From NCBI GenBank assembly GCA_051649325.1, contig JBOFGW010000290.1, positions 1-33,174 of the forward strand: 33,174 nucleotides of DNA. Reading direction: 5' to 3'. The notes beneath the pieces are model-generated. The model had not been told where the DNA came from. It made no database searches and was given only the letters and a program-made list of their open reading frames with translations. The first letter of the stretch is position 1; every line of letters starts with the position of its first letter. The translations under genes and the position numbers were made by a program. This stretch comes from Burkholderiaceae bacterium. GTDB taxonomy: Bacteria; Pseudomonadota; Gammaproteobacteria; Burkholderiales; Burkholderiaceae_C. Shown piece after piece: positions 11,424-33,174 of the stretch.

Positions 11424-12795
11424 GGAGATGTTCACGCACTTCGCTCCTTTCAGAACTGTCAATGGGCAGCGTCAGAGTGAATCGAGTGCCTGCGCCCTCT
11501 TGCGATTCCAGCGCAATGGTTCCGCCCGCGCGCTGGATCACCTGTTTGCAAAACATCAATCCAAGGCCGTGGCCGCTGGACTCATGGGTTGTAAAAAACG
11601 GCTCAAACACCCGCTCACGTACCGCCAGCGGCATGCCAATCCCGCGGTCGGCGAACACGAGTTTGCCGTGTTGGCCAGAGGTTGTGACCGTCACTGAAAC
11701 ATCGCCGAGCACCGGGTCGCGCTGTGTTGCCACTACGGCGCGCAGGGCGTTCTTGAGCAAATTTGTGATGACTTGCGCCGTCAACACTTTGGAGCCGCGA
11801 AACGTGTAGTCGGTAACCACCGACACTTCTACACACTGGGCGAGCGCTGCATCGGTAAACGGATATCCTGCAATCGCTTCCTGCACTACCTGGCCCATGC
11901 GCACGGACTCGCGCGCGCCTGTGGCGACAAGCAAGCTGGAATTACTGATCTGCGTATCGATCTGATGGTTCATCAGCCGCACCAGCTGCGTAATCTTCTC
12001 CACCTGCGGCTGCATGGCCGCCAAGCCGGAGACTGCAGCCGCGGCGTCCTTTGATTGCGCGAGACCAGAGAGTCTTTGATTCAAGGCTTGCCCGATCAAT
12101 GACAAAGTAGCCAGTGGCGTGCGCAGTTCATGTGCCATGATGGCCATGGTCGACAGCATGGAAAGCAGGCGCTGCCGGCGCGTGTTTGCAGCAGACAAGC
12201 CAAGCACGATACCGGACGCCCAAGAAAACAAATGCACTGGCCAGGTTGGTGCCAATGCCTGCAAAACTGCGGCCTCGGAGGCAAACTGCGACCATAGAAA
12301 CATGTTGATGAGCAGGCCCACTGCAACGCCGACGGTTGCAAGGCGCCAATCCGTCACGTAGTAGTAAAAGAAAATCATCGCCGTGACAGAGGCAAGCCAC
12401 ACCGCATCGCCGCCGTTGGCAAAATACATCCACCAAAAGAAAAACGGCAGGTTTACAAACGTGTTGAGTGAGAACACGCGCGCCGCCGTGCGGGAGAATG
12501 GCCGGTTGCACACCGCGGGCAAGAGCAGCGGCACGCCAAACAACATCATGAGCAGCCGCAGGCCCAGATTTTCATAGGGCTCTGGAATGACGAAGGTCCA
12601 AATGATGTAATACAGCGGATGGCCAACCAGGGTAATGGCGCCTACGATCTGTATTCGCAACTTGGATGGGCTGATGATCGGTTCGAGCGGCGCGTGTAGC
12701 ACTGCTTTTCTTGCACCTTGCGCGATCGCGCGTATTCGGGCGCCGAAGCTGAAATTGGATAGAGGCATCACCGTGGTTGCAGTGCGCGCGATCAT
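11416..12795 (-). CDS. cqsS: CqsS/LqsS-like membrane sensor histidine kinase (multi-TM N-terminal sensor, HisKA and HATPase_c domains, no receiver)
   Basis: The N-terminal multi-helix region contains PLYYIIWTFVIPEPYENLGLR ... LPFFFWWMYF, reminiscent of the CqsS sensor domain. The H-box is HELRTPLATL, the N-box is NLLKNALRA, and the G-boxes are DRGIGMP and GHGLGLMFCKQVIQRAGG. The ORF track extends to 13128, but that extension overlaps the LuxR gene on the other strand, so ATG 12795 (or 12768) is the likely start. Confidence 0.7.
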   Translation of the reverse strand: MIARTATTVMPLSNFSFGARIRAIAQGARKAVLHAPLEPIISPSKLRIQIVGAITLVGHPLYYIIWTFVIPEPYENLGLRLLMMLFGVPLLLPAVCNRPFSRTAARVFSLNTFVNLPFFFWWMYFANGGDAVWLASVTAMIFFYYYVTDWRLATVGVAVGLLINMFLWSQFASEAAVLQALAPTWPVHLFSWASGIVLGLSAANTRRQRLLSMLSTMAIMAHELRTPLATLSLIGQALNQRLSGLAQSKDAAAAVSGLAAMQPQVEKITQLVRLMNHQIDTQISNSSLLVATGARESVRMGQVVQEAIAGYPFTDAALAQCVEVSVVTDYTFRGSKVLTAQVITNLLKNALRAVVATQRDPVLGDVSVTVTTSGQHGKLVFADRGIGMPLAVRERVFEPFFTTHESSGHGLGLMFCKQVIQRAGGTIALESQEGAGTRFTLTLPIDSSERSEVREHLHA

Positions 12796-22506: not shown

Positions 22507-24534
22507 ATGCAAAGCCCGATCAATACCGCCATAGCCGTCAATCTGCCCGGTGCAGACAGTTTTGATTTTCATGCGCAAACCGCACTAGCACCCGGGCAAC
22601 TTGCCGTCGTGCCCTGGGGCAACGGCAAGCGCATGGGCGTGGTGCTGCAAGCCCCTGCGGCGCCGCAGATTGAGGCCGCGCGCATCAAGCCAATTACAGG
22701 CGCGGTGACCGAATGGCCTGCCCTGCCCGCACCCGTGTTGGCGCTGGCACGCTTTGCGGCGGAGTATTACCAGCGCGGCCTGGGTGAAGTGCTGCTCTCT
22801 GCCATTCCCGAGCCGCTCACGCGCGCGGCGGATTACGCGATTGACGATGGAACCGCGCGCTTTGCCAAACTCAAACGCGTCAAGCGCGCGCAAAGCCAAA
22901 GCACCCGCGCGGCGGCCGGCGACGCGCTCACGCTCAACGCGGAGCAAGCGCAGGTGCTCGCGCGCATCAGCGCCACCACTAGTTACGCGCCGCATCTGCT
23001 GTTTGGTGTAACTGGCAGCGGCAAGACCGAGGTGTATCTGCACGCGGTAGCGCAAACGCTGGCGCGCGGCAAAACCGTGCTGCTGCTGGTGCCGGAAATC
23101 GCCCTCACTGAAGGGCTGTGGGCGCAGGTGTTTGCGCGCTTCCCGGACGTGCCTATCGCACTCATGACCAGTGCGCTGTCCGACGGAGAACGCGCCATCG
23201 GCTGGCTGGATGCGCTCAAAGGCGAAGCAACAATTGTGATCGGCACACGCTCAGCCGTGTTTGCGCCGCTGGCGAACGTGGGGCTGATCATCGTCGATGA
23301 GGAGCACGACGCGAGCTACAAGCAAAGCGAAGGCGCGCGCTGGCACGGCCGCGATCTGGCGGTGATGCGCGCGCGGCTGGAAGATTGCCCCATTGTGCTG
23401 GGCAGCGCCACGCCCAGCCTGGAAAGTTGGGCCAACGCGCAGGCCGGCCGCTACAGCTTGCTGCGGCTGGCGCAGCGCGCCAATACCGCCGCGCGCTTGC
23501 CACGCATTGAACTGGTGGAGCCAAGCAAGGCCGCCAATTTGGCAGGCGTATCCGAGCGTTTGTTTGCAGCGCTGCAAGCACGCCTTGCCGCAGGCGAACA
23601 AAGCCTAGTGTTTCTGAACCGCCGCGGTTACGCGCCGGTGCTGGCCTGCGACGCCTGCGACTGGATGGCCGACTGCGACAACTGCTCCGCCCACTTTGCG
23701 CTGCACCGCGCGCGCAGCAAATCTGGCTATCAACTCATCTGCCATCATTGCAGCGCGCACCGCGCCGTGCCGCTGCGCTGCCCGCAGTGCGGCAATGCAG
23801 ACCTGTTACCCAAGGGCCGCGGCACGCAAAAGCTGGAAGACGCGCTCGCGCAAGCGCTGCCGCAAGCGCGCATTGTGCGTATGGATGCAGACACCACGCG
23901 CCGCCGCGGCGCAGGCGCGCAAATGCTGCAAGACATGGATGCCGGCAGCACAGACATCCTCGTCGGCACGCAAATGACCGCCAAAGGCCACGACTTTGCG
24001 CGGCTCACGCTGGTGGGCGTGCTGGGCGCAGATCAATCACTGGGCAGCCCGGATTTTCGTTCTGAAGAGCGGCTATTCGCCCTGCTCATGCAAGTGGCAG
24101 GCCGCGCCGGCCGCGCCGACAAACCCGGCGAAGTGCTGATTGAAACCAAACGCCCGCGCCACATGCTATTTGACGCGCTCAAACAGCAAGACTACGAAGC
24201 CGTAGCCACGCGCCTGCTGCAAGAGCGCGAAGACCTCGGCCTGCCGCCCTACGTAAGCTTTGCCTTGATGCGCGCCAGCGCCAAGAGCGATGCGATCGCG
24301 CAGAGTTTCTTGAAAGACGCCCGCGCGCTCGGCCTTGAGCGCGGCGTAACGCTCTACCACCCCATGCCACAAGCCGTACCCCGCGTCGCCAATCAAAGCC
24401 GCTGGCAACTGCTGGCCGAAGCGCCCAGCCGCGCGCAGATGCAAACTTTTTTGAAAGACTGGCTCGTCAAAGTCAACGCGCTCAAAAGCAGTAACGTGCG
24501 CTGGCATATCGATGTGGATCCACTGGAGCTATGA
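22507..24534 (+). CDS. priA: Primosomal protein N' (replication restart helicase PriA)
   Basis: Walker A (LLFGVTGSGKTEVYL), DEEH box (IIVDEEHDASYKQ) and the Cys-rich zinc-binding region (CDACDWMADCDNCSAHFALH...CHHCSAH...CPQCGN). The length is 675 aa. Confidence 0.93.
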   Translation: MQSPINTAIAVNLPGADSFDFHAQTALAPGQLAVVPWGNGKRMGVVLQAPAAPQIEAARIKPITGAVTEWPALPAPVLALARFAAEYYQRGLGEVLLSAIPEPLTRAADYAIDDGTARFAKLKRVKRAQSQSTRAAAGDALTLNAEQAQVLARISATTSYAPHLLFGVTGSGKTEVYLHAVAQTLARGKTVLLLVPEIALTEGLWAQVFARFPDVPIALMTSALSDGERAIGWLDALKGEATIVIGTRSAVFAPLANVGLIIVDEEHDASYKQSEGARWHGRDLAVMRARLEDCPIVLGSATPSLESWANAQAGRYSLLRLAQRANTAARLPRIELVEPSKAANLAGVSERLFAALQARLAAGEQSLVFLNRRGYAPVLACDACDWMADCDNCSAHFALHRARSKSGYQLICHHCSAHRAVPLRCPQCGNADLLPKGRGTQKLEDALAQALPQARIVRMDADTTRRRGAGAQMLQDMDAGSTDILVGTQMTAKGHDFARLTLVGVLGADQSLGSPDFRSEERLFALLMQVAGRAGRADKPGEVLIETKRPRHMLFDALKQQDYEAVATRLLQEREDLGLPPYVSFALMRASAKSDAIAQSFLKDARALGLERGVTLYHPMPQAVPRVANQSRWQLLAEAPSRAQMQTFLKDWLVKVNALKSSNVRWHIDVDPLEL

Positions 24535-25067
24535 GCACGCCGCAGCGCATTCAACTCATCGGCGGCAGCGGCTCGGGCAAGAGCACGATTGCGCAGCAAC
24601 TCGCGCAGCGCCTGAACGCGGTCTATTGCGATCTGGACGATCTGCACTGGGATCCGCAGTGGATTGAAGTGCCTAACGACGTGATGTTCGCGCGCCTGGC
24701 GCCGGTTGCCGCGCAAGAGCGCTGGATCATCGCCGGCAACTACCCGCAGACGTGGCCGATGCTCTGGCCTAGGCTCGACCTGCTGATCTGGCTTGACCTG
24801 CCGCTGCACGTGAAAGTGTGGCGCACCCTACGCCGCACCTTCAAGCGCGCGTGGCGGCGCGAACCCTGCTGCAACGGCAACTACGAAAGCTTGGTACGCC
24901 TATTCACCCGCGATTCAGTCGTGCTCTATCTGATCCAAACCCATGCGCAGCGGCAGCGTGAATACACCGCGCAGATGAATCGCCGCGACCGGCCGCCGTT
25001 TACTTTTGTGCGGCTGCGCACACAGCGCGAAGTCAGTGCTTTTGTAGAGAAATTAACCGATAAATAA
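24531..25067 (+). CDS. Small P-loop NTPase (adenylate-kinase-like / topology-modulation-protein-like)
   Basis: Walker A LIGGSGSGKSTIAQQLA, followed by LDDLHW. The start overlaps the priA stop (ATGA). Confidence 0.7.
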   Translation: MSTPQRIQLIGGSGSGKSTIAQQLAQRLNAVYCDLDDLHWDPQWIEVPNDVMFARLAPVAAQERWIIAGNYPQTWPMLWPRLDLLIWLDLPLHVKVWRTLRRTFKRAWRREPCCNGNYESLVRLFTRDSVVLYLIQTHAQRQREYTAQMNRRDRPPFTFVRLRTQREVSAFVEKLTDK

Positions 25068-25071
25068 GTGC

Positions 25072-25136
25072 TTTACGCAATATCCATGCGGGTTTTAAGG
25101 CGTTTCTTCCTCAAAACCCGCATGGATATTGCGTAG
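25072..25136. repeat. Copy 6 of the palindromic repeat family
   Basis: The sequence is TTACGCAATATCCATGCGGGTTTTAAGGCGTTTCTTCCTCAAAACCCGCATGGATATTGCGTAG, with a perfect 24-bp stem. It is intergenic, between the ATPase gene and rtcA. Confidence 0.9.
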
Positions 25137-25137
25137 T

Positions 25138-26172
25138 CTAGTGTGTAGTTTCGGTCTTCACATGCCAAGCGGCATCACGCTGCTCAATCACAAATCGCAC
25201 CGGCAAGAACTGCGCAATTGTCTGCGCATTGGTGCGTGTGTGCTGCGTGATTTCATTGGCTACGAATTCGCCCGCGTTATTGTCTCTAGCGGCCAGCGCT
25301 TGCAGCAGCATGAGTTGATCAGCCAAATGCGGCCCCACCGGCGCGTGCGATTTTTGATAATCACGCAGCTCGCTCACCAACCGTTTGGCCACTTCGTCTG
25401 AACTCACCGCTTTCTCGCCAAACTGCGTGAACACTTCTGTCACGTGTTCATACGCGAGCGTGGCGATCAGCGCGTTGCCCGGCCCTTCGTTCTGGCGCGT
25501 GCCGCCGTGACGCAGTTGGTCACCGCTCCAGCCCATCGCCGCGCCCAGCACCTCTAGCTCGCGCGCGGGCACGCTGCGCGGCAGGCCGGGCGCGAGCGCT
25601 TCTGCGTACGCGTCAACAGGCGCGCCGCGCTGCGTGAGTGTGATGGGTTTGAGCTGCGCGGCCGGATAAATCACCGCTGTCATCTCACCCCCGCCCGCCG
25701 GATAAAACCCGTGGCGGCGCAAGCTGAGCTGCAGATCCGCACCCGCGCGGCGCACCAGCGGTGCAAACGCCTGCTGCAGAAAATGAAACGGCGGCGCCAT
25801 TGGGTTATGCGTGCCGCCCGCTAAATGAATCGTGCTGGCTGCATCGGCCAGCAGCAGCGGCGGCAACACCGTTTGCAGCACCAGCGTGCAAGACCCCGCG
25901 CTACCCACCGCAAAACTGTACTCGCCCGCCTTCACTTTGCCCGACGCAAACACCAGTTGCTGCGAATTCAATTCCGCACCTTCCACCTGCGCACCACACA
26001 CCGCCTGCGCCGCCTGCACGCAGGTGAGATGCTGCCGCATCAGCCCCGGCTTGGGCCGCTTCGCGCGAATGCTGTGCATGCGAAACGGCTTGCCCGTCAC
26101 CATCGACAAGGCCAGCGAAGTCCGCAAAATTTGTCCACCGCCTTCTCCGGCGGAACCGTCGATTTCAATCAC
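25138..26172 (-). CDS. rtcA: RNA 3'-terminal phosphate cyclase
   Basis: The protein is collinear with E. coli RtcA: IEIDGSAGEGGGQILRTSLALSMVTGKPF, RPKPGLMRQHLT, FAVGSAGSCTLVLQTVLPPL and RHGFYPAGGG. The GTG start overlaps the upstream gene's stop by 8 nt. Confidence 0.93.
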   Translation of the reverse strand: MIEIDGSAGEGGGQILRTSLALSMVTGKPFRMHSIRAKRPKPGLMRQHLTCVQAAQAVCGAQVEGAELNSQQLVFASGKVKAGEYSFAVGSAGSCTLVLQTVLPPLLLADAASTIHLAGGTHNPMAPPFHFLQQAFAPLVRRAGADLQLSLRRHGFYPAGGGEMTAVIYPAAQLKPITLTQRGAPVDAYAEALAPGLPRSVPARELEVLGAAMGWSGDQLRHGGTRQNEGPGNALIATLAYEHVTEVFTQFGEKAVSSDEVAKRLVSELRDYQKSHAPVGPHLADQLMLLQALAARDNNAGEFVANEITQHTRTNAQTIAQFLPVRFVIEQRDAAWHVKTETTH

Positions 26173-27274
26173 TTTTTTCTTCTCTTCGCCGAGTTACTTT
26201 TTTCTTTCCTCGTTCGAGCTTCTTTTGGTACTCCATCCATCCGCTGTGAAAACCTTGGTCAGCACGACTAGCCCAAGTTTCAAAAAGACTACCCAGGACT
26301 AAAGAGTCGACACTCGGAACAAGATGTAGGACTGCTTTGCCCGTCCGTACTAGAGATGACACCGTTAGGACTCCCGGCTCAGTAAGCCCTGCATTGCTAG
26401 GTCCAGCAAGAAGAATCTTGCCTTGGCTTTGATCATCCAAACCAAGCCTAAACATCACACCTTTTGCACTGGCATGAACGTTTTGGCTAGCAAATTTGTA
26501 GTACGGTCTCAAATATTCGTAGCCAGTGAACTCTTCCAGATCAAAGAAAGTAATCCTCCCGCTCTTAGCAAGCAGCTTTGCGGCCCAACCATAGTCTTTG
26601 GCAAAGCTTTCACCATTTGCAGCAATGGCTTTGTTTCGCTCTTTCGTGATCCGAGCCATTGCTTGACTAGATAGCTTTCTTTCACCAAGTGCGGCAGCGT
26701 GCGTTTGATATTGCAAAGCAGCGTGATAGTTCTCGACTGCGACATGAGAACGATAGAGCTGCGAAACGCCAGCTTCGCTATGAGCAAGTACATCGGCCAC
26801 TGTTGCAACTTCGTGCAATGAGCGCCAGCGTGCTATTGCGCCATCTGCGAATCCGTTAAGTAGCAAGTGATATATCTCACTTGAAATCTGAATAGAGCGC
26901 GCATGAAGCTGAGCTACAACGTCGATTCGAATTCTTTCCGCCTCAGAACGACTTCTTCTCAACGCCAGTTTTATTGACGCTTCAAGTTCAATCGACATAT
27001 TGATTAGCTCAAGCAAGCGGTCAAGGCCTGCATTCCAGTTCCGAGCATTGCTTCGTAGGAATTGGCCGTGATCTCTCTTCCACTCGCGAAGCGAATCTCG
27101 CGAGCGCTGGCGCAAACCCTTGGCAAGAACTTTGGCTAAATCACTCGCTATAGCGGGCAGGTCCTGAGCGAGGCGCTCTAGTTTTTCTTTACCTTCGCCA
27201 TGGGACGGAGAAAGCCCCATCTCCGTCAGCTTATCCGCTATCAGCGATTCAAAGATTTTTTGTATTCCTAGCAT
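26165..27274 (-). CDS. Hypothetical protein (369 aa, lower GC) inserted between rtcB and rtcA. Predicted all-alpha. Contains an RWRSLH (Rx4H) motif.
   Basis: A long ORF with coding-like codon usage, noticeably AT-richer than its neighbours. The ATG is at 27274. It is translationally coupled to rtcA. No family was recognised by eye. Confidence 0.6.
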   Translation of the reverse strand: MLGIQKIFESLIADKLTEMGLSPSHGEGKEKLERLAQDLPAIASDLAKVLAKGLRQRSRDSLREWKRDHGQFLRSNARNWNAGLDRLLELINMSIELEASIKLALRRSRSEAERIRIDVVAQLHARSIQISSEIYHLLLNGFADGAIARWRSLHEVATVADVLAHSEAGVSQLYRSHVAVENYHAALQYQTHAAALGERKLSSQAMARITKERNKAIAANGESFAKDYGWAAKLLAKSGRITFFDLEEFTGYEYLRPYYKFASQNVHASAKGVMFRLGLDDQSQGKILLAGPSNAGLTEPGVLTVSSLVRTGKAVLHLVPSVDSLVLGSLFETWASRADQGFHSGWMEYQKKLERGKKKVTRRREEKSD

Positions 27275-27293
27275 TTATTGGCCGCTTGGCTAT

Positions 27294-27415
27294 CCCTTCA
27301 AACACACAACCTACCTCAACATATAAACCACTTCCACCAAATCCCTCTGCGCTCCCATCATCGCATCAATACCCTTGTACGCCATCGGAATTTCATCGAT
27401 CACATCAGCGTCTTT
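27294..27415 (-). pseudogene. Degenerate duplicate of the rtcB 3' end (last ~40 codons), a non-functional fragment
   Basis: The 122 bp are about 88% identical (14 mismatches) to rtcB 28385-28506. Translation gives KDADVIDEIPMAYKGIDAMMGAQRDLVEVVYMLR*VVCLKG, against the rtcB C-terminus KDADVIDEIPMAYKDIDAVMEAQKDLVEVVYTLKQVVCVKG. An internal stop is present. Confidence 0.85.
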
Positions 27416-27474
27416 GCTTGATACAAACTTGTCCGACGCTTTGCGCTGCGTATGCATCAGTGCCCAGATTCCGG

Positions 27475-28365
27475 TTAGTCCTTTTCGCAGTACCAGCGAG
27501 CATTTTTCGCAATCATGCTGTGGGGGCTGTTACATAGGGCTGCGAGCAGGCTTCTCCTCTGCGGAAAATCCATTCGATTTGCCAGCACTACAAAGGCGCG
27601 CCAAGCTATGTTTTTGTCTGTACTGTGCAGGGCTTGCGATATCGGTTCTTTGAGTTCTGATGCCGGCAGTCTTAACACTGGGCGCAACCAGTTTGAGAGA
27701 TGTTTGCTGTCATTGAGATATGCAGGAATCAGCCAAAACGCGTCCGCGCGGCCAACAGAATGTGCGATTGCCCTACTCGCGGCTTCGCCCAGGTGGTACT
27801 CCCAGCTTCTGTAGGCTGCGTTCTCAGCTTCTTTAATCCAATTCCGCAAGCGTTGTATGTTCGCGCTACCTCCCCAACTTCCCAGTACGCCTACTGCCGT
27901 CGTACGAATACCCCACCATTTGCTGCTCAACGCGTTTTCAACTTCCAACTGAGCGCTTTCATCGGGCGCATGGTTGCTCAAGGCGCGTAGACGTGCCGTC
28001 CATTCCCGCAGCAAATCCGCATTGTTCAGCGCGAACTCACGCCGCGTTTTCCGACACCGTAAGCAGCGCACGGCCTGGCTGTCGATGTTTCCTTTGGCAA
28101 TCTCATACCACCACTTTTGCTGTGCCGCGGTCCAAACGCCGTTTGTGCCGCAATCCTTGCACGTAAACGCGCGGTCTTCGTAGAACTTTGGCAGCAGGTT
28201 GTAAGTGCTGTTGTGCGCGAGCTGAGCCGGATCGGCGCTTATTCGGCTCGTGGAACCTGAAGAAGCAGCGAACCGCACATCATTTATTTTTGATTGAAAC
28301 CATGTAGCCGCCCGCTCCTGCCGGCGCTGCATGATTTCTTTTCGGCGTTTTTTGTTGCTTTTCAT
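27475..28365 (-). CDS. Hypothetical protein (296 aa, lower GC) with a basic N-terminus and a CxxC...CxxC zinc-ribbon. Inserted between rtcB and rtcA.
   Basis: The N-terminus is MKSNKKRRKEIMQRRQER. The Zn-ribbon is CKDCGTNGVW...CLRCRK. The gene starts 15 nt after the rtcB stop. No family was recognised. Confidence 0.6.
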   Translation of the reverse strand: MKSNKKRRKEIMQRRQERAATWFQSKINDVRFAASSGSTSRISADPAQLAHNSTYNLLPKFYEDRAFTCKDCGTNGVWTAAQQKWWYEIAKGNIDSQAVRCLRCRKTRREFALNNADLLREWTARLRALSNHAPDESAQLEVENALSSKWWGIRTTAVGVLGSWGGSANIQRLRNWIKEAENAAYRSWEYHLGEAASRAIAHSVGRADAFWLIPAYLNDSKHLSNWLRPVLRLPASELKEPISQALHSTDKNIAWRAFVVLANRMDFPQRRSLLAALCNSPHSMIAKNARWYCEKD

Positions 28366-28380
28366 TTTCCAGTTTTTTTG

Positions 28381-29613
28381 CTAGCCCTTCACGCACACCA
28401 CCTGCTTCAACGTATAAACCACCTCCACCAAATCCTTCTGCGCTTCCATCACCGCATCAATGTCCTTGTACGCCATCGGAATTTCATCGATCACGTCGGC
28501 GTCTTTACGGCATTCCACGCCGGCGGTGGCTTTGATTTGGTCTTCGATGGTGAACAGTTTTTTGGCTTTGGTGCGGCTCATGGTACGGCCGGCGCCATGG
28601 CTGCATGACTGGAAGCTTTCCGGGTTGCCTTTGCCGCGCACGATGTAGCTGCGCGCGCCCATGCTGCCCGGAATAATCCCCAGCTCGCCTTTTTTGGCGC
28701 TTACCGCGCCTTTGCGCGTGACAAATACCTCTTCACCAAAGTGCGTCTCTTTTTGCACGTAGTTGTGGTGGCAGTTCACGGCTTCGATATGCGTTTCAAA
28801 CGGCTTGGTGATCACTTTGCGGGTGGCACCGATCACGCGCTGCATCATCACCTCACGGTTTAGGCGCGCGAACTTCTGCGCCCAGCCCACGCCGCGCACG
28901 TAGTCACCAAAGTATGTGCTGCCTTCTTCAAAGTAGGCCAAATCCTGGTCTGGCAAATTGCGTTGATGCTGCTCGGCGTCTTTCTTAGCCAGCTCGATAA
29001 ACAGATTGCCCATAGCGTTGCCCACGCCGCGTGAACCGCTATGTAGCATGAACCACACCGCGCCTTCGGTATCCAAACACACCTCGATAAAGTGGTTGCC
29101 GCCGCCCAGCGTACCCATGTGGCGGTGGTTGTTGGTGTTTTTCAGACGCGGGTAGTCTTCACAAATCTGCTCAAACTCCTCGGCCAATTGCGCCCAAGCG
29201 GCATCTGCCTCGTTGGGCGGCGTTTCCCAAGAGCCTTTGTCACGGTTTGAACCTTCACGGCGAAACTGCTTGGGGCTCATGCCGTGCGGCACGGCCTTTT
29301 CAATCTCGGCGCGCAGCGCGCTCAAGTTATCCGGCAAATCTTCCGCGCGCAGCGTGGTCTTGCAGGCAATCATGCCGCAGCCAATATCCACGCCTACCGC
29401 CGCAGGAATAATCGCCTTGAAGGTAGGAATCACGCTGCCCACAGTAGCGCCAATGCCGTAGTGAACATCCGGCATAGCGGCGATGTGTTTGAAGATCACC
29501 GGTAGCTTGGCAGCGTTTTCCAATTGCTTGCGCGCTTCGTCTTCCACCGGCACGCCGCGCGTCCACATCTTCACGGGTACGCCGCCGGGGACTTCGTTCA
29601 ATTCGTAGTTCAT
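28381..29613 (-). CDS. rtcB: RNA-splicing ligase RtcB
   Basis: Collinear with E. coli RtcB from MNYELNEVPGGVPVKMWTRGVPVEDEARKQL to the C-terminus DEIPMAYKDIDAVMEAQKDLVEVVYTLKQVVCVKG. Metal-ligand His/Cys motifs are conserved (HNYV, CSHGAGR). Confidence 0.95.
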   Translation of the reverse strand: MNYELNEVPGGVPVKMWTRGVPVEDEARKQLENAAKLPVIFKHIAAMPDVHYGIGATVGSVIPTFKAIIPAAVGVDIGCGMIACKTTLRAEDLPDNLSALRAEIEKAVPHGMSPKQFRREGSNRDKGSWETPPNEADAAWAQLAEEFEQICEDYPRLKNTNNHRHMGTLGGGNHFIEVCLDTEGAVWFMLHSGSRGVGNAMGNLFIELAKKDAEQHQRNLPDQDLAYFEEGSTYFGDYVRGVGWAQKFARLNREVMMQRVIGATRKVITKPFETHIEAVNCHHNYVQKETHFGEEVFVTRKGAVSAKKGELGIIPGSMGARSYIVRGKGNPESFQSCSHGAGRTMSRTKAKKLFTIEDQIKATAGVECRKDADVIDEIPMAYKDIDAVMEAQKDLVEVVYTLKQVVCVKG

Positions 29614-29626
29614 TTTTTTCTTTCGG

Positions 29627-30085
29627 TCAATTTGCTAGATCATTACTCATTACCCAAACGCCGCCTTCGTGGCTGTACGCGAGTCCGAGCTTTCCAGGCA
29701 CGATTGACACAAACCCTTCTAGAAAGCGAGGTGCATGTTGTTTTAGAAAGGCGTTCAAAGTGCATTGGAATATTTGCGGTTGCCGACTTCGAAAGTGACC
29801 ACAGGCCAAAGCAGTGCAAACCCGCTCAAGGTGCGGCCGTAGAAAGACTTCCGTTATCTTTTCAGTAGTCATTGGCGGCACGTTGTCATAGCAACTGCCA
29901 GGCCAAACATCGATTGGCGAAATTCTGTCCCACCGCTCCTCTGAGCGCGATAGCAAGTACTCCCAACGCTCTGCTTTTTCGGGCGCAAAGGTCTTGAAGA
30001 GCGTTATCAAGTCTCCCTTAGCTGCCGCGGCTTCCTCCAGCGTCATGACATTCCCATTTAAGAACTTCATAAGGTGATTTCTCAC
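29627..30085 (-). CDS. Hypothetical protein (about 150 aa, lower GC), immediately upstream of rtcB in the same operon
   Basis: The listed ORF starts at GTG 30085; an ATG at 30070 gives MKFLNGNVMTLEEAAAAKG... It is AT-richer than the flanking rtcB and SPFH genes. No family was recognised. Confidence 0.5.
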   Translation of the reverse strand: MRNHLMKFLNGNVMTLEEAAAAKGDLITLFKTFAPEKAERWEYLLSRSEERWDRISPIDVWPGSCYDNVPPMTTEKITEVFLRPHLERVCTALACGHFRSRQPQIFQCTLNAFLKQHAPRFLEGFVSIVPGKLGLAYSHEGGVWVMSNDLAN

Positions 30086-30198
30086 TGACTAATGCTGGTG
30101 GCTTCTTCAAAAGCTAAAGAGCTGTTTTCATGAGGGAAGGCCCAAACGGCCCTCCCTCCCACCCGCCATCTCAATTGATGGCGGGGTCAACAACAGTT

Positions 30199-31338
30199 TT
30201 AGCGCACTTTGATCAAGCTGTTCAGTACGCCATCCAGGCCGCCAAATACAGAGATCTTGTCGATCCGTTCGGCGATCTTCTCCAACGTTTCCAACTCCTT
30301 CATCCGCAATGCGGTGGGGTTGTCTTCCATCACCTTGGCCGTGTTCAGCAAAGACCGCGTTGCGGCAGTCTCTTCACGGCGGCGGATGTTGTTGGCTTGC
30401 GCCGTCTTTTCCGCCTCAACAACCTTGGCCAAGATGGCTTTCATCTCACCAGGCAAGATAATGTCTTTCACTCCCACGCTTTGCAGTGCCACGCCGTAGC
30501 CGGCCAATTTGTCGGTCACCGCGGCTACGACCACTTGGTCGATCACGTTGCGGTTTTCCAGCAACTCGTCCAGCAAACGCGTACCTACTGCCGCACGCAA
30601 GCCCAATTGCAGCTCGCGGTACAGCGCTTCAGCGGGCTGATTCAATTGCGTGAAGGCCTTGAGCACATCGGTGTACTTGAAGGTGGCAGACAAATTCAGG
30701 CGCAGGGCCACTTTGTCTTTGGTCAAAATTTCTTGACCAGTCACCTCCAAGGACTGCAAACGCATGTCCACAATCTCTACCGACACCTCGCGGCCAAAGC
30801 GCCAGAACGCATACGCACCGGGGCTGAGCAACTGCATCAACTTGCCGTCTACACGCAGCACACCGCTGGCGTAATCAGGCACGGTGGTTTGCAGCACCGC
30901 ATTCAAGCCAGCCACCGCACGCGCACGCAACTGGGTCTGCGTCAAACGCTTGGCCAGCGCCGCATCCACCTGTACTTGCTCGGCGATTTCAACCGCTTGC
31001 ACGCGTACATCGCGCAGGCCTTTCCAGTACAAGCGCCGGGTTCCGGGCGGCAGCAATTCAACCAGCACGCCGTCTTCAAAGCGCAAACCCGCCTGCGTTT
31101 CTGCCAGCTCAACCCGCACAAACTCTTGCGCCACGATGTCTGGCGCAGAAGCCATCAAATAGTCAGCCACCGGGTTTGCAAACGCGGGCTGTGCCAAGTC
31201 AAAGCGTTCGATGCGCAGCTTGTTCAGTGGGTCAAACAGCGCGTACGCACCAGGCGCCAAAATGCGCTGGAAGTCGCCGCTTTTGAACAGCAAGGCTTTT
31301 TCAGTTTTTTTGATGACGAATCGCTTCAACATTTTCAT
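30199..31338 (-). CDS. SPFH/band-7 (stomatin/prohibitin/flotillin/HflKC-like) domain protein. It has an N-terminal extension and no obvious transmembrane anchor.
   Basis: The C-terminal half, TKDKVALRLNLSATFKYTD...GVALQSVGVKDIILPGEMKAILAKVVEAEKTAQANNIRRREETAATR...LRMKELETLEKIAE, is typical SPFH plus coiled coil. SD AGAGAGGAA precedes ATG 31338/31332. Confidence 0.7.
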   Translation of the reverse strand: MKMLKRFVIKKTEKALLFKSGDFQRILAPGAYALFDPLNKLRIERFDLAQPAFANPVADYLMASAPDIVAQEFVRVELAETQAGLRFEDGVLVELLPPGTRRLYWKGLRDVRVQAVEIAEQVQVDAALAKRLTQTQLRARAVAGLNAVLQTTVPDYASGVLRVDGKLMQLLSPGAYAFWRFGREVSVEIVDMRLQSLEVTGQEILTKDKVALRLNLSATFKYTDVLKAFTQLNQPAEALYRELQLGLRAAVGTRLLDELLENRNVIDQVVVAAVTDKLAGYGVALQSVGVKDIILPGEMKAILAKVVEAEKTAQANNIRRREETAATRSLLNTAKVMEDNPTALRMKELETLEKIAERIDKISVFGGLDGVLNSLIKVR

Positions 31339-31655
31339 TTTCCTCTCTCATTTTCTTTACTTTTTTGTGTACCCTTTGCGCAGCAGGCGGCGGGCTATTG
31401 GGCGGACGTTGAATGATTGCTGCTGCCGCTACCAACGCGCCGTGGCACGCTAGCGTGAACAACCCATTTATTCACATCAGCCCAGCAGCGCAAGCAAACT
31501 TCTTGCGCCTGCTGCGGGTGTTGGGCACTGCGCATCTTGCACACCCGGCTGCAATACTGCCAGCCGTGCGTGACGTTTGCGCCGCACCCGCAACCTTCGG
31601 GCACTTTCCCTGGTTTCCCAGGGCACTGCATCGACAAAACACGTTTCTTAGACGT

Positions 31656-31729
31656 GTGTTCAGGCAGGAGTCGAACCTGCGACAACCGGAGTTGCCCCCG
31701 GGGCTCTAACCAATCTGAGCTACAGAACG
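31656..31729 (-). ncRNA. tRNA-like structured RNA element 1: canonical D-arm and T-arm, defective acceptor and anticodon arms. Possibly a Y-RNA-like tRNA mimic or a tRNA pseudogene.
   Basis: The minus-strand sequence is CGTTCTG-TA-GCTC-AGATTGGTTA-GAGC-...-GCAGG-TTCGACT-CCTGC-CTGAACA. The D-stem and T-stem are perfect and the T-loop is TTCGACT. The acceptor stem has 5 of 7 bp (C1·A72 and U6·U67 mismatches). The anticodon stem has a mismatch, the loop is GGGCAAC (no U33), and no CCA is encoded. Confidence 0.45.
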
Positions 31730-31740
31730 GCGCGATCACG

Positions 31741-31870
31741 GGGAATCGAACCCACAGCTCTTTCGAGCGCCAACCTTGGCTGTTCGCATATCCAATCGCG
31801 TGCAGTGCAGCGGCATACACCAAGATCACACCCGGTCTGGGTGAACTGGCGCACCGGCGGGGTAGATGTT
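31741..31870 (-). ncRNA. Structured RNA element 2 adjacent to element 1. It has a T-loop-like hairpin (GGG-TTCGATT-CCC), a GNRA-capped hairpin (GCTC-GAAA-GAGC) and other stems. It is not a canonical tRNA.
   Basis: Minus-strand features: ...GCCAAGGTTGGC (palindrome), GCTCGAAAGAGC and CTGTGGGTTCGATTCCCCG. It is non-coding and lies between the candidate sigma54 promoter and the first gene of the rtc operon. Confidence 0.35.
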
Positions 31871-31926
31871 TTCTAAACCCCTGACCTGTGAGCGTGCATC
31901 GTCGTTTGATCAGATGCTTGAGATAT

Positions 31927-31943
31927 AGCGATTGGTGTGCCAG
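31927..31943 (-). promoter_or_regulatory. Candidate sigma54 (-24/-12) promoter driving the minus-strand rtc operon
   Basis: Minus strand reads TGGCAC-ACCAA-TCGCT. The GG-N10-GC spacing is correct, -24 TGGCAC is perfect, and -12 is TCGC versus consensus TTGC. It is divergent from rtcR, whose product is a sigma54 activator. An AT-rich region (31950-32055) lies upstream for the UAS/IHF. Confidence 0.5.
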
Positions 31944-32055
31944 GGCTGTTTGAAACTTGCAACCTATTGATTTATATGGGTATTTTTGCCTCCAATTCGA
32001 TAACCCTACTTTGAAAATCTTTTAAACATAGATTTTTAGCTAGTAAGATAGCTTT

Positions 32056-33174
32056 ATGACTAGCAAGAAATCCGTCGTCATCGGCTTTTTGGGCACCCAA
32101 CTCGATAGCGGCCAAGGCACCGGCCGTTGGGAGAAATGGCGGCCAACGGTGTCGCTCGCGCAGCATGAAGACCTGCAGCTTGACCGGCTGGAGCTGATTT
32201 ACACGCCGCGCCATCAAGCGCTGGCGGAGATCGTCAAGGCGGATATTGCGCTTGCCTCACCGCAGACCGTTGTGAACTTGGTCGCCATCGATATCAAAGA
32301 CCCGTGGGACTTTGGCGAGGTGTACGGCGCGCTATATGACTACGTGCGCACCTACGCGTTTGATACCGAGCGCGAGCAGTACTGGGCGCACATCACCACC
32401 GGCACGCACGTGGCGCAGATTTGCATGTTCTTGCTGGTGGAGGCGCGCTTTATTCCCGGTGTGTTGTGCCAAACCGCGCCGCCAAAAAAGCAGCGCCAAG
32501 GCGATGCGGGCACGGTCACACTGATTGATCTTGATCTGTCGCGCTACGACGCGCTGGCGCAGCGCTTTGCAGCAGACAAGCGCGATGCGGTAAGTTTTCT
32601 CAAGAGCGGCATTGCCACACGCAACAAAAAATTCAACGCGCTGATTGAAGAGATTGAACGCGTGGCCGTACGCAGCAAAGCGCCGATTTTGCTCACCGGC
32701 CCTACCGGCGCGGGCAAATCGTTTTTAGCGCGGCGCATGTTTGAGCTGAAAAAAGCGCGCCACCAAATCGGCGGCCCGTTTGTAGAGGTGAACTGCGCCA
32801 CGCTGCATGGCGATGGCGCGGCGTCCACATTGTTTGGTCACAAGAAAGGCGCGTTTACCGGCGCGGCGGCAGACCGGGCGGGCCTTTTAAAAAGCGCGGA
32901 TGGCGGTGTGCTGTTTCTAGACGAGATCGGTGAGCTGGGCTTAGACGAGCAAGCCATGCTGCTCAAAGCGATTGAAGAGAAACGCTTCTTTCCCGTAGGC
33001 GCAGACCGCGAAGTAGCGAGCGACTTTCAACTCATCGCCGGCACCAACCGCGACTTGCGCGATGAGGTGAGCGCCGGCCGCTTTCGCGACGATCTCTTCG
33101 CACGCATCAATTTGTGGAGCTATGACTTGCCGGGCCTGGCGCAGCGGCCCGAGGACATTGAGCCCAACATCGAC
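32056..33174 (+). CDS. rtcR: Sigma54-dependent transcriptional activator RtcR (N-terminal CARF domain + AAA+ sigma54-interaction domain). It is 3'-truncated by the window end.
   Basis: The protein is collinear with E. coli RtcR: VVIGFLGTQLD, RWEKWRPT, LDRLEL, NPWDFGEVY, ITTGTHVAQICMFLL, IDLDLSRY, FLKSGIATRN, APILLTGPTGAGKSFLARR, FVEVNCATL, GAFTGA, GGVLFLDEIGELG, QAMLLKAIEEK, DFQLIAGTNRDL, RINLW and PGLAQRPEDIEPN. No stop falls before the window end. Confidence 0.93.
   Translation, partial: MTSKKSVVIGFLGTQLDSGQGTGRWEKWRPTVSLAQHEDLQLDRLELIYTPRHQALAEIVKADIALASPQTVVNLVAIDIKDPWDFGEVYGALYDYVRTYAFDTEREQYWAHITTGTHVAQICMFLLVEARFIPGVLCQTAPPKKQRQGDAGTVTLIDLDLSRYDALAQRFAADKRDAVSFLKSGIATRNKKFNALIEEIERVAVRSKAPILLTGPTGAGKSFLARRMFELKKARHQIGGPFVEVNCATLHGDGAASTLFGHKKGAFTGAAADRAGLLKSADGGVLFLDEIGELGLDEQAMLLKAIEEKRFFPVGADREVASDFQLIAGTNRDLRDEVSAGRFRDDLFARINLWSYDLPGLAQRPEDIEPNID

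Follow-up and report, generated by a model that had tools for sequence, protein, structure and literature searches.

An RtcR/σ54-type SPFH-rtc RNA-repair operon with two probable recombination slots for interchangeable accessory genes

The sequence analyzed here, called the window, is the entire 33,174-bp contig JBOFGW010000290.1 of a Burkholderiaceae metagenome-assembled genome (assembly GCA_051649325.1). It holds a predicted RNA-repair operon of six minus-strand open reading frames (ORFs) within positions 25138–31338, which encode, in order of transcription, an SPFH protein, a 152-aa protein (p152), RtcB, a 296-aa protein (p296), a 369-aa protein (p369), and RtcA. This order, preceded by a candidate σ54 site, was recovered from ORF, Pfam, and NCBIfam data as it had been read in a first-pass annotation made from the letters of the DNA. 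The reading that we consider probable is that the locus belongs to a known family of RtcR/σ54-controlled SPFH-rtc operons, that its SPFH|RtcB junction (slot A) and RtcB|RtcA junction (slot B) are recombination hot spots, and that p152, p296, and p369 are three recently acquired cassettes of low G+C content.

The conserved backbone consists of four genes. rtcB (28381–29613, minus strand) encodes a 410-aa 3′-phosphate/2′,3′-cyclic-phosphate RNA ligase (Pfam RtcB, 1.8e-130) and rtcA (25138–26172, minus strand) a 344-aa RNA 3′-terminal phosphate cyclase (Pfam RTC, 1.7e-79; NCBIfam NF003246, 424 bits against a cut-off of 352); the two share one direction downstream of a −24/−12 motif. The first gene of the operon encodes a 379-aa slipin-like SPFH/Band-7 protein (30199–31338, minus strand; Pfam Band_7, 2.6e-26) with a maximum hydropathy of 1.14. 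No transmembrane segment was predicted in any operon protein, and the SPFH protein is therefore expected to be soluble. Divergent from the operon is the 5′ part of rtcR (32056–33174, plus strand), truncated at the contig end, so that the portion for the C-terminal helix-turn-helix falls outside the window. Its product matches the CARF-type N-domain of Pfam RtcR (4e-83) and the AAA+ family Sigma54_activat (5e-51), in agreement with its first description as a divergent CARF-domain σ54 activator. A divergent RtcR with 62–79% identity is common to about 45 related loci.

Three accessory genes, the cargo, are interspersed in this backbone. p152 (29627–30085, minus strand), a small α/β protein from a rare, uncurated family with no counterpart in the family libraries, occupies slot A. 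In slot B, p296 (27475–28365, minus strand) matches zf_Tbcl (3e-14) and, under the cut-off, HEAT_2 (8.8e-6), and p369 (26165–27274, minus strand), predicted to adopt a HEPN fold and carrying an Rx4H motif (R149...H154), matches DUF5677 (4e-25). The first-pass annotation had placed the three partners other than the SPFH protein in unknown families, which the Pfam assignments of p296 and p369 correct; no NCBIfam model matched the cargo proteins, and PADLOC returned nothing useful for the operon proteins, its single match being to p369 with an E of 0.006. The cargo genes had also been described as richer in A+T than the rtc genes, and their composition bears this out: G+C content at third codon positions (GC3) is 0.52 for p152, 0.59 for p296, and 0.42 for p369, against 0.71–0.72 for SPFH, RtcB, RtcA, and RtcR.

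From SPFH to RtcA, the intergenic distances are, in order, 113, 13, 15, 200, and −8 nt. The tight spacing of −8 to +15 nt initially ascribed to every junction consequently holds for three of the five, among them the junction at which the first 8 nt of rtcA overlap the end of p369, as had been noted. The SPFH-p152 gap widens to 152 nt if translation of p152 begins at the ATG at 30046, the probable start since homologues begin at about residue 14. No excess of σ70 promoter-like or terminator-like sites was found inside the operon. Two neighboring G+C-rich hairpins (30134–30185, minus strand) lie in the 113-nt gap directly after the SPFH stop codon; neither has a T-tract, and they could serve in processing or attenuation or be the scar of an insertion.

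A survey with the window's SPFH protein as query, covering one genome per species, returned at least 558 relatives, and the best 80 (53–70% identity; from Burkholderiales, Pseudomonas, Rhodocyclales, and others) were analyzed; related loci are cited below by number. SPFH and RtcB are adjacent in most of the 80, and about 45 share the order of divergent RtcR, a 600–750-nt leader, SPFH, RtcB, and then RtcA where the contig reaches it. The distances between these genes vary widely, from 34 to 5025 nt for SPFH-RtcB and from 11 to 4390 nt for RtcB-RtcA. Clustering and Pfam searches of the slot ORFs identified an RlaP nucleotidyltransferase in slot B of 22 loci and a small zf_Tbcl protein, mostly in slot A, in 21. 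Further slot families comprise a MoxR-type AAA+ protein with a DUF2201 vWA/metallopeptidase, a 450–470-aa HEAT protein, a ClpP-like SDH protease, and several unannotated proteins. The combination of cargo seen in the window occurs in none of the 80 related loci; tblastn-based cargo absence is to be read as a lower bound, because tblastn missed a divergent DUF5677 protein of one locus (L012) that Pfam later detected.

The turnover of cargo is most evident in two metagenomic contigs, L188 (1–5603) and L189 (1–3061), whose RtcB is 97% and, on L188, RtcA 93% identical to those of the window (91% for rtcB and 89% for rtcA at the DNA level). In L188, rtcB is followed by genes for a 207-aa protein, a zf-HEAT protein 60% identical to p296, a 439-aa HEAT protein, and RtcA; in L189, the genes after rtcB encode a DUF6988 protein, a zf-HEAT protein, and a HEAT protein. 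In blastn comparisons, DNA homology to the window ends at the rtcB stop codon and restarts 16 nt before the rtcA start. The window itself retains a trace of such exchange, as the 200-nt gap between p296 and p369 holds a decayed copy of the last 52 rtcB codons (27290–27448, minus strand; RtcB aa 359–410), detected by tblastn (69% over 52 aa, E 2e-15) and blastn (88% over 126 nt). This copy contains an in-frame stop, and 15 nt separate its end from the p369 start codon. Direct repeats of the rtcB 3′ end thus flank p296 on both sides. The decayed copy is a recombination scar; the older arrangement was rtcB-p369-rtcA, into which p296 was inserted later by recombination. Insertion into a pre-existing rtcBA operon, proposed at the outset from composition, gains support from the scar and from the different cargo carried by backbones with 97% identical RtcB and 93% identical RtcA. 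The cargo appears to be interchangeable and not a fixed, co-evolved set. Separately, in L005 an 87-aa ORF after the SPFH gene (11973–12236) is 84% identical over 73 residues to the N-terminal part of RtcB, and no full rtcB was detected there; this ORF may be another recombination remnant.

Among the cargo proteins, p369 is only 40% identical to its nearest homologue. The segment GFADGAxARWRSLHE (R149, R151, H154, and E155) is invariant in 30 homologues, as is H267 in the motif NVHA. The structural model is confident, with a predicted local distance difference test score (pLDDT) of 89, and all-helical, and it displays the all-α helical-bundle fold of HEPN proteins. The conserved Rx4–6H motif and the modeled fold together support the assignment of p369 as a HEPN-fold protein and a probable HEPN ribonuclease, which strengthens the first-pass guess that its RWRSLH motif could be HEPN-like. 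A profile search of the PDB with the p369/DUF5677 alignment gave only chance matches, and when the DUF5677 alignment was set against individual HEPN, Abi_C, and DUF6988 sequences in hhalign, the probabilities were uninformative (~0.1%). HEPN endoribonucleases leave 2′,3′-cyclic phosphate and 5′-OH ends, which are substrates of RtcB. Most HEPN domains are metal-independent endoribonucleases (PMC3710099).

Genes of related type occur at the same place in other loci. Acidovorax L012 carries its divergent DUF5677 gene in the slot after rtcB (Pfam, 8e-19), and Simplicispira L022 has there an Abi_C protein with the motif RNRLGDAHG (Pfam, 4e-20); we take Abi_C to be the AbiJ-type HEPN domain. The DUF6988 protein after rtcB in L189 has the motif RGVWLH and weakly matches DUF5677 too, and the 207-aa protein after rtcB in L188 has an Rx4H motif, RNQFIH. 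DUF6988 has recently been validated by experiment as a domain of an anti-phage system (PMC13092281).

p296 appears to be a composite. Its residues 1–110 form a basic N-terminal tail and a zf_Tbcl treble-clef zinc finger, and its C-terminal part resembles HEAT proteins, with the subthreshold HEAT_2 match given above. The N-terminal module matches 120–160-aa proteins in slot A or B of 23 of the 80 loci (33–56% identity), and of the four loci with a separate 450–470-aa HEAT protein in slot B, three pair it with a zf_Tbcl protein in slot A. That p296 joins both types of module suggests that zf_Tbcl and HEAT modules work together. Full or partial relatives of p296 are scarce: a set of 5.8 billion proteins yielded only four others, three of which (L188, L189, and L190) have the same position after rtcB, with full-length relatives in L188 and L189 showing 59–60% identity.

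The family of p152 is similarly sparse. A word-based homologue search gave no match, p152 itself included, and a plasmid search gave none either, whereas exhaustive searching with HMMER across 1.84 billion representatives yielded 24 relatives (best E 6e-22), which indicates a real but rare family on the strength of its alignments. The shared motifs are ERW..LL....RW.KI.P..W, CGH, and EGFVSI.PG.LALA.NHEGG. The closest relative (L088) is flanked by genes for SPFH (69% identical) and RtcB (81% identical), so that synteny of the p152 family with rtc genes extends beyond the window. The distantly related P0141 in L091 starts one base after the stop codon of a gene for a 3263-aa RHS/PT-HINT toxin, the classical place of an immunity gene. 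Other relatives neighbor a HicB-like antitoxin gene or form part of an integrase island made up of small ORFs, and the cluster names retrieved for p152 relatives were uninformative. In L091 (5801–7000), the RHS/PT-HINT protein ends in an 80-residue lysine-rich domain with the motif EEHFHDIDHND and no Pfam match; it may be an uncharacterized toxin domain.

The AlphaFold model of p152 is confident (pLDDT 90). A match of p152 to the immunity protein CdiI (PDB 5T86 chain I) was not reproduced in a Foldseek search of the PDB; a profile search of the PDB with the p152 alignment gave chance matches only, with no sequence similarity to CdiI. The toxin activity of 5T86 is itself disputed between a BECR RNase and a VOC assignment. 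Immunity proteins of the CdiI/SciX type, from contact-dependent inhibition and Rhs systems, are encoded directly downstream of their cognate toxin genes, whereas p152 has no toxin gene adjacent to it in the window. That p152 is immunity-protein-like is a reasonable hypothesis, for which we put the odds at about even.

Several observations weigh against the reading of the locus as a known SPFH-rtc operon that has captured functionally coupled cassettes. RlaP, the commonest partner in related loci (22 loci), has neither a gene nor a remnant in the window. The candidate σ54 promoter of the first-pass annotation, taken by itself, matches at chance level (one found in the window, 0.57 expected), whereas the motif is kept in 30 of 48 related leaders. 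Promoters or processing sites could lie in the gaps of 113 and 200 nt. The divergent DUF5677 protein of L012 lacks the His of the Rx4H motif. Each of three DUF5677 homologues that were looked up stands alone in a neighborhood of toxin-antitoxin, integrase, or prophage genes, and among 95 loci of close DUF5677 relatives (80 metagenomic and 15 viral), none has a relative of rtc, SPFH, p152, or p296 within 6 kb. Because its close relatives stand alone in mobile or defense-like surroundings, the presence of DUF5677 here may be incidental, and an Enterococcus faecalis DUF5677 ORF was not among the phage-protective ORFs in one study (PMC12632615).

These points lend themselves to a rival explanation, in which the cargo consists of autonomous selfish or defense genes in a permissive hot spot, DUF5677 being a stand-alone Abi-like toxin, with no link to RNA repair beyond read-through. 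We hold this to be unlikely for the cargo as a whole and most credible for p369, in view of the solitary and viral settings of its relatives, the 40% identity of the nearest homologue, and its low GC3; the integrase-island and HicB-adjacent relatives of p152 point in the same direction. It sits uneasily with the recurrence of DUF5677, DUF6988, Abi_C, and a 207-aa Rx4H protein after rtcB in independent loci and with the return of p152 and zf_Tbcl relatives to the same slots. The expectation that the accessory genes be syntenic with rtc genes elsewhere is in fact realized for p152 (L088), the zf_Tbcl module (23 of 80 loci), and divergent DUF5677 (L012), and fails for the close relatives of DUF5677. 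The spacing within the window also argues against mere co-residence. p369 starts only 15 nt past the end of the decayed rtcB copy and is overlapped by rtcA, and from this arrangement rtcA expression would depend on read-through of the cargo.

A second rival, that SPFH, p152, p296, p369, and the leader RNAs form one dedicated, co-evolved RNA-repair or defense module not previously described, was the proposal of the first-pass annotation. It can point to genes on one strand between a σ54 site and a terminator hairpin, to three short junctions, and to the recurrence of p152 and the zf_Tbcl module in rtc operons. We nonetheless regard it as very unlikely, since the SPFH, tRNA-like RNA, and RtcB components are already described, the cargo differs in composition from the core, the scar splits p296 from p369, the combination is found in 0 of 80 related loci, and relatives with 97% identical RtcB carry other cargo; a fixed four-gene novel module was rejected. 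As to novelty, the Band-7/tRNA-like/RtcB association was described in 2016 according to bioRxiv 10.1101/312249, and PaFlo8 has been placed in an rtc locus (PMC13086221). In the accessible literature, where the 2016 survey is represented by the preprint that cites it, we found neither two-slot cassette behavior with strain-level turnover and an rtcB-end scar nor recurrent HEPN-type genes after rtcB, a p152 family with a toxin-immunity link, or a zf_Tbcl-HEAT fusion.

Upstream of the SPFH gene, the window has a predicted leader of ~580 nt that carries structured RNAs. The σ54 −24/−12 promoter-like site (TGGCAC-N5-TCGC, TGGCACACCAATCGC) lies at 31928–31942 on the minus strand; the 30 of 48 related leaders that have the motif share the TCGC −12 element and the offset from rtcR, and its columns are conserved in the leader alignment. 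Just downstream, near the predicted 5′ end of the leader, a hairpin at 31852–31890 (minus strand) is conserved in the 48-leader alignment (columns cAC.GG..GGGg...cCcCgCCGGTGC). The motif TATGCCGC at 31810–31817 (minus strand) is also conserved across the 48 leaders. Folding of the leader as a single sequence was no better than that of shuffles (z −0.9). A 144-aa ORF at 31395–31829 in the ORF list is probably spurious, as it overlaps the tRNA-like RNAs. Between the second of these RNAs and the SPFH start, ~320 nt of G+C-rich sequence (31339–31655, minus strand) shows patchy conservation and no Rfam match.

Two tRNA-like elements had been noted in the leader, of which one is recognized by ARAGORN and Rfam and the other is degenerate and visible only by comparison. 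Element 2 (31656–31729, minus strand) forms a cloverleaf that ARAGORN calls "tRNA-Cys gca" and that scores 39.2 bits against the Rfam tRNA model, above the gathering score; two of its acceptor pairs are non-canonical, and it has no 3′ CCA. In an alignment from 33 related loci, 9 of its 16 pairs show compensatory changes on both sides, which supports the cloverleaf. Element 1 (31731–31800, minus strand), read from the sequence, comprises an acceptor-like stem (CGCGAT/ATCGCG), a GAAA-capped hairpin, and a T-arm (GGGTTCGATTCCC). Neither ARAGORN nor Rfam detects it in the window, and it was revealed by comparison with relatives, which have an element at the same position; in Pseudomonas-type loci this is a full tRNA-like structure. 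In 40 of 42 loci, the strand after the T-arm pairs at 6–7 of 7 bases with a segment whose distance is constant within each clade, and 32 different sequences are used for this pairing; the per-sequence shuffle control for this result is weak. MAFFT/RNAalifold recovered the T-arm alone, because architectures differ between clades.

Most related leaders contain, at a constant position upstream of the Band-7 gene as in the window, either a single tRNA-like element or a tandem pair recognized by ARAGORN. Their "anticodons" vary by locus or are 2 or 4 nt long, and in many loci the anticodon loop of element 2 is a GNRA (GAAA or GCAA) or UUCG tetraloop, so that such RNAs could not decode and an anticodon nuclease could not cut them at the usual place. 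From the variable or aberrant anticodons, the covarying cloverleaf, and the placement in the leader, both elements appear to be tRNA mimics in an mRNA leader and not tRNA genes; in anticodon identity, acceptor stem, and lack of stand-alone gene status, 31656–31729 departs from a genuine tRNA. An ordinary tRNA-Cys gene at 31656–31729, with the operon promoter downstream of it, can scarcely be the explanation and was rejected: for all its ARAGORN call and Rfam score, the element keeps a fixed position between the conserved σ54 site and the SPFH gene in dozens of loci, its "anticodon" differs or is lost among relatives, its acceptor stem is imperfect, and a second degenerate tRNA-like element precedes it. 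Many relatives (L012, L035, L041, L043, L047, L053, L071, and others) encode ACCA or CCA after element 1, where the window has GCC, a hint that some lineages process the element into a minihelix with a CCA end. SPFH loci without a detected RtcR (L051, L058, L062, L066, L073, and L077) frequently carry additional tRNA genes of normal appearance (His, Lys, Met, or Asn) just upstream of the tRNA-like elements.

At the other end of the operon, a 60-nt near-perfect inverted repeat (25075–25134; ACGCAATATCCATGCGGGTTTT...AAAACCCGCATGGATATTGCGT), which also self-matches in blastn comparisons with L188, separates rtcA from a convergent P-loop kinase-like gene (24531–25067). The repeat is present in L188 as well, and it is a probable bidirectional terminator.

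A working model for the captured-cassette reading starts from the inducing signal, for which tRNA fragments ending in 2′,3′-cyclic phosphate have been proposed as the RtcR ligand (PMC7790460, PMC10159003). By analogy with the Rtc systems of Salmonella and Escherichia coli, damaged or nicked tRNA with such an end would activate RtcR, and σ54 RNA polymerase would then produce a single ~6.8-kb transcript from the site at 31928–31942 to the hairpin at 25075–25134. The leader would yield two tRNA mimics without a conserved anticodon, which might be bound by the SPFH protein as decoys or cofactors; a decoy role against anticodon nucleases is plausible given the missing conserved anticodon loop. RtcA and RtcB would heal and seal the broken RNA, and the cargo would bring conflict-related functions under the same signal, with p152 as a candidate neutralizer of an incoming RNase toxin and p296 as a putative RNA- or protein-binding adaptor. 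p369 would act as a metal-independent endoribonuclease whose 2′,3′-cyclic phosphate and 5′-OH products could be joined by RtcB and would reinforce the RtcR signal.

Carried further, the RtcR operon would be a damage-inducible platform that captures conflict cassettes. The signal for RtcB and RtcA would also switch on tRNA decoys lacking an anticodon, orphan immunity proteins against incoming RNase toxins (p152), and HEPN endoribonucleases (DUF5677, DUF6988, and Abi_C), which together would impose a reversible, self-amplifying cut-and-repair shutdown of translation under phage or toxin attack. We offer this extension as a speculation of low probability. If the cargo is functionally coupled to the core, bacterial RNA repair would reach beyond housekeeping heal-and-seal and form the inducible base of a modular counter-attack on RNA-targeting toxins and phages, with immunity proteins, RNA decoys, and an RNase of its own under one damage sensor. 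If the cargo merely hitch-hikes, nothing sets the locus apart from the other members of its known family. It also provides a handle on three uncharacterized families (DUF5677, the zf_Tbcl module, and the p152 family), and near-identical backbones with different cassettes constitute a natural experiment that could show how such operons diversify.

Pairings of a HEPN endoribonuclease with an RNA ligase are familiar from other systems. The KEN domain of IRE1 works with RtcB in the metazoan unfolded-protein response, and the anticodon nucleases PrrC and RloC are countered by phage Pnkp and Rnl. The encoding of an Rx4H protein of predicted HEPN fold near RtcB resembles these pairs. It differs in that p369 has no sensor domain and a role predicted from fold and motif, and in that close DUF5677 relatives act, if at all, without RtcB. 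KEN, PrrC, and RloC have all been assigned to HEPN (PMC3710099).

With the E. coli rtcR-rtcBA locus, the window shares a CARF-type RtcR, a σ54 promoter, RtcB, and RtcA; it differs by four additional genes and a ~580-nt leader with structured RNAs, and its rtcB and rtcA lie 2.2 kb apart. The parallel first drawn with Salmonella rsr-yrlBA-rtcBA (Ro60 and Y RNAs) is apt, as both are RtcR/σ54 operons that place a scaffold protein, RNA-binding or putatively so, and tRNA-mimicking RNAs alongside rtcBA. Here an SPFH protein would take the role of scaffold, and two tandem tRNA-like units replace the Y RNAs. Pfam finds no TROVE/Ro60 domain among the operon proteins, as the first-pass annotation had stated, and the YrlA model scores 17.1 bits in the window against a gathering score of 69; on these grounds a Y RNA/Ro module was rejected.

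The closest counterpart is the computationally predicted system of a Band-7 protein, b7a-tRNA, and RtcB, which bioRxiv 10.1101/312249 credits to Burroughs & Aravind (2016, NAR 44:8525) and in which, in that preprint's account, the SPFH protein and tRNA-like RNAs are proposed cofactors or scaffolds. An SPFH protein of Pseudomonas aeruginosa, PaFlo8, is likewise embedded within an rtc locus (PMC13086221, 2026). Some E. coli have a two-gene version between a DUF3811 gene and lysC, as in STEC639 (L192; CP061233.1, 611814–613738), with a slipin (SPFH) 51% identical to that of the window, a "nucleotidyltransferase domain protein" where RlaP usually sits, and a 530-nt unannotated stretch upstream. 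In the window, as in the Band-7 system, an SPFH gene lies directly upstream of rtcB and is preceded by tRNA-like RNA, with RtcR divergent and RtcA downstream, so that the core (RtcR, tandem tRNA-like leader, SPFH, RtcB, and RtcA) is an already described system. The difference lies in the cargo: relatives often carry RlaP nucleotidyltransferase and MoxR/vWA genes, whereas the window has no RlaP and carries a small, possibly CdiI-like protein, a zf_Tbcl-HEAT fusion, and a DUF5677 protein of predicted HEPN fold.

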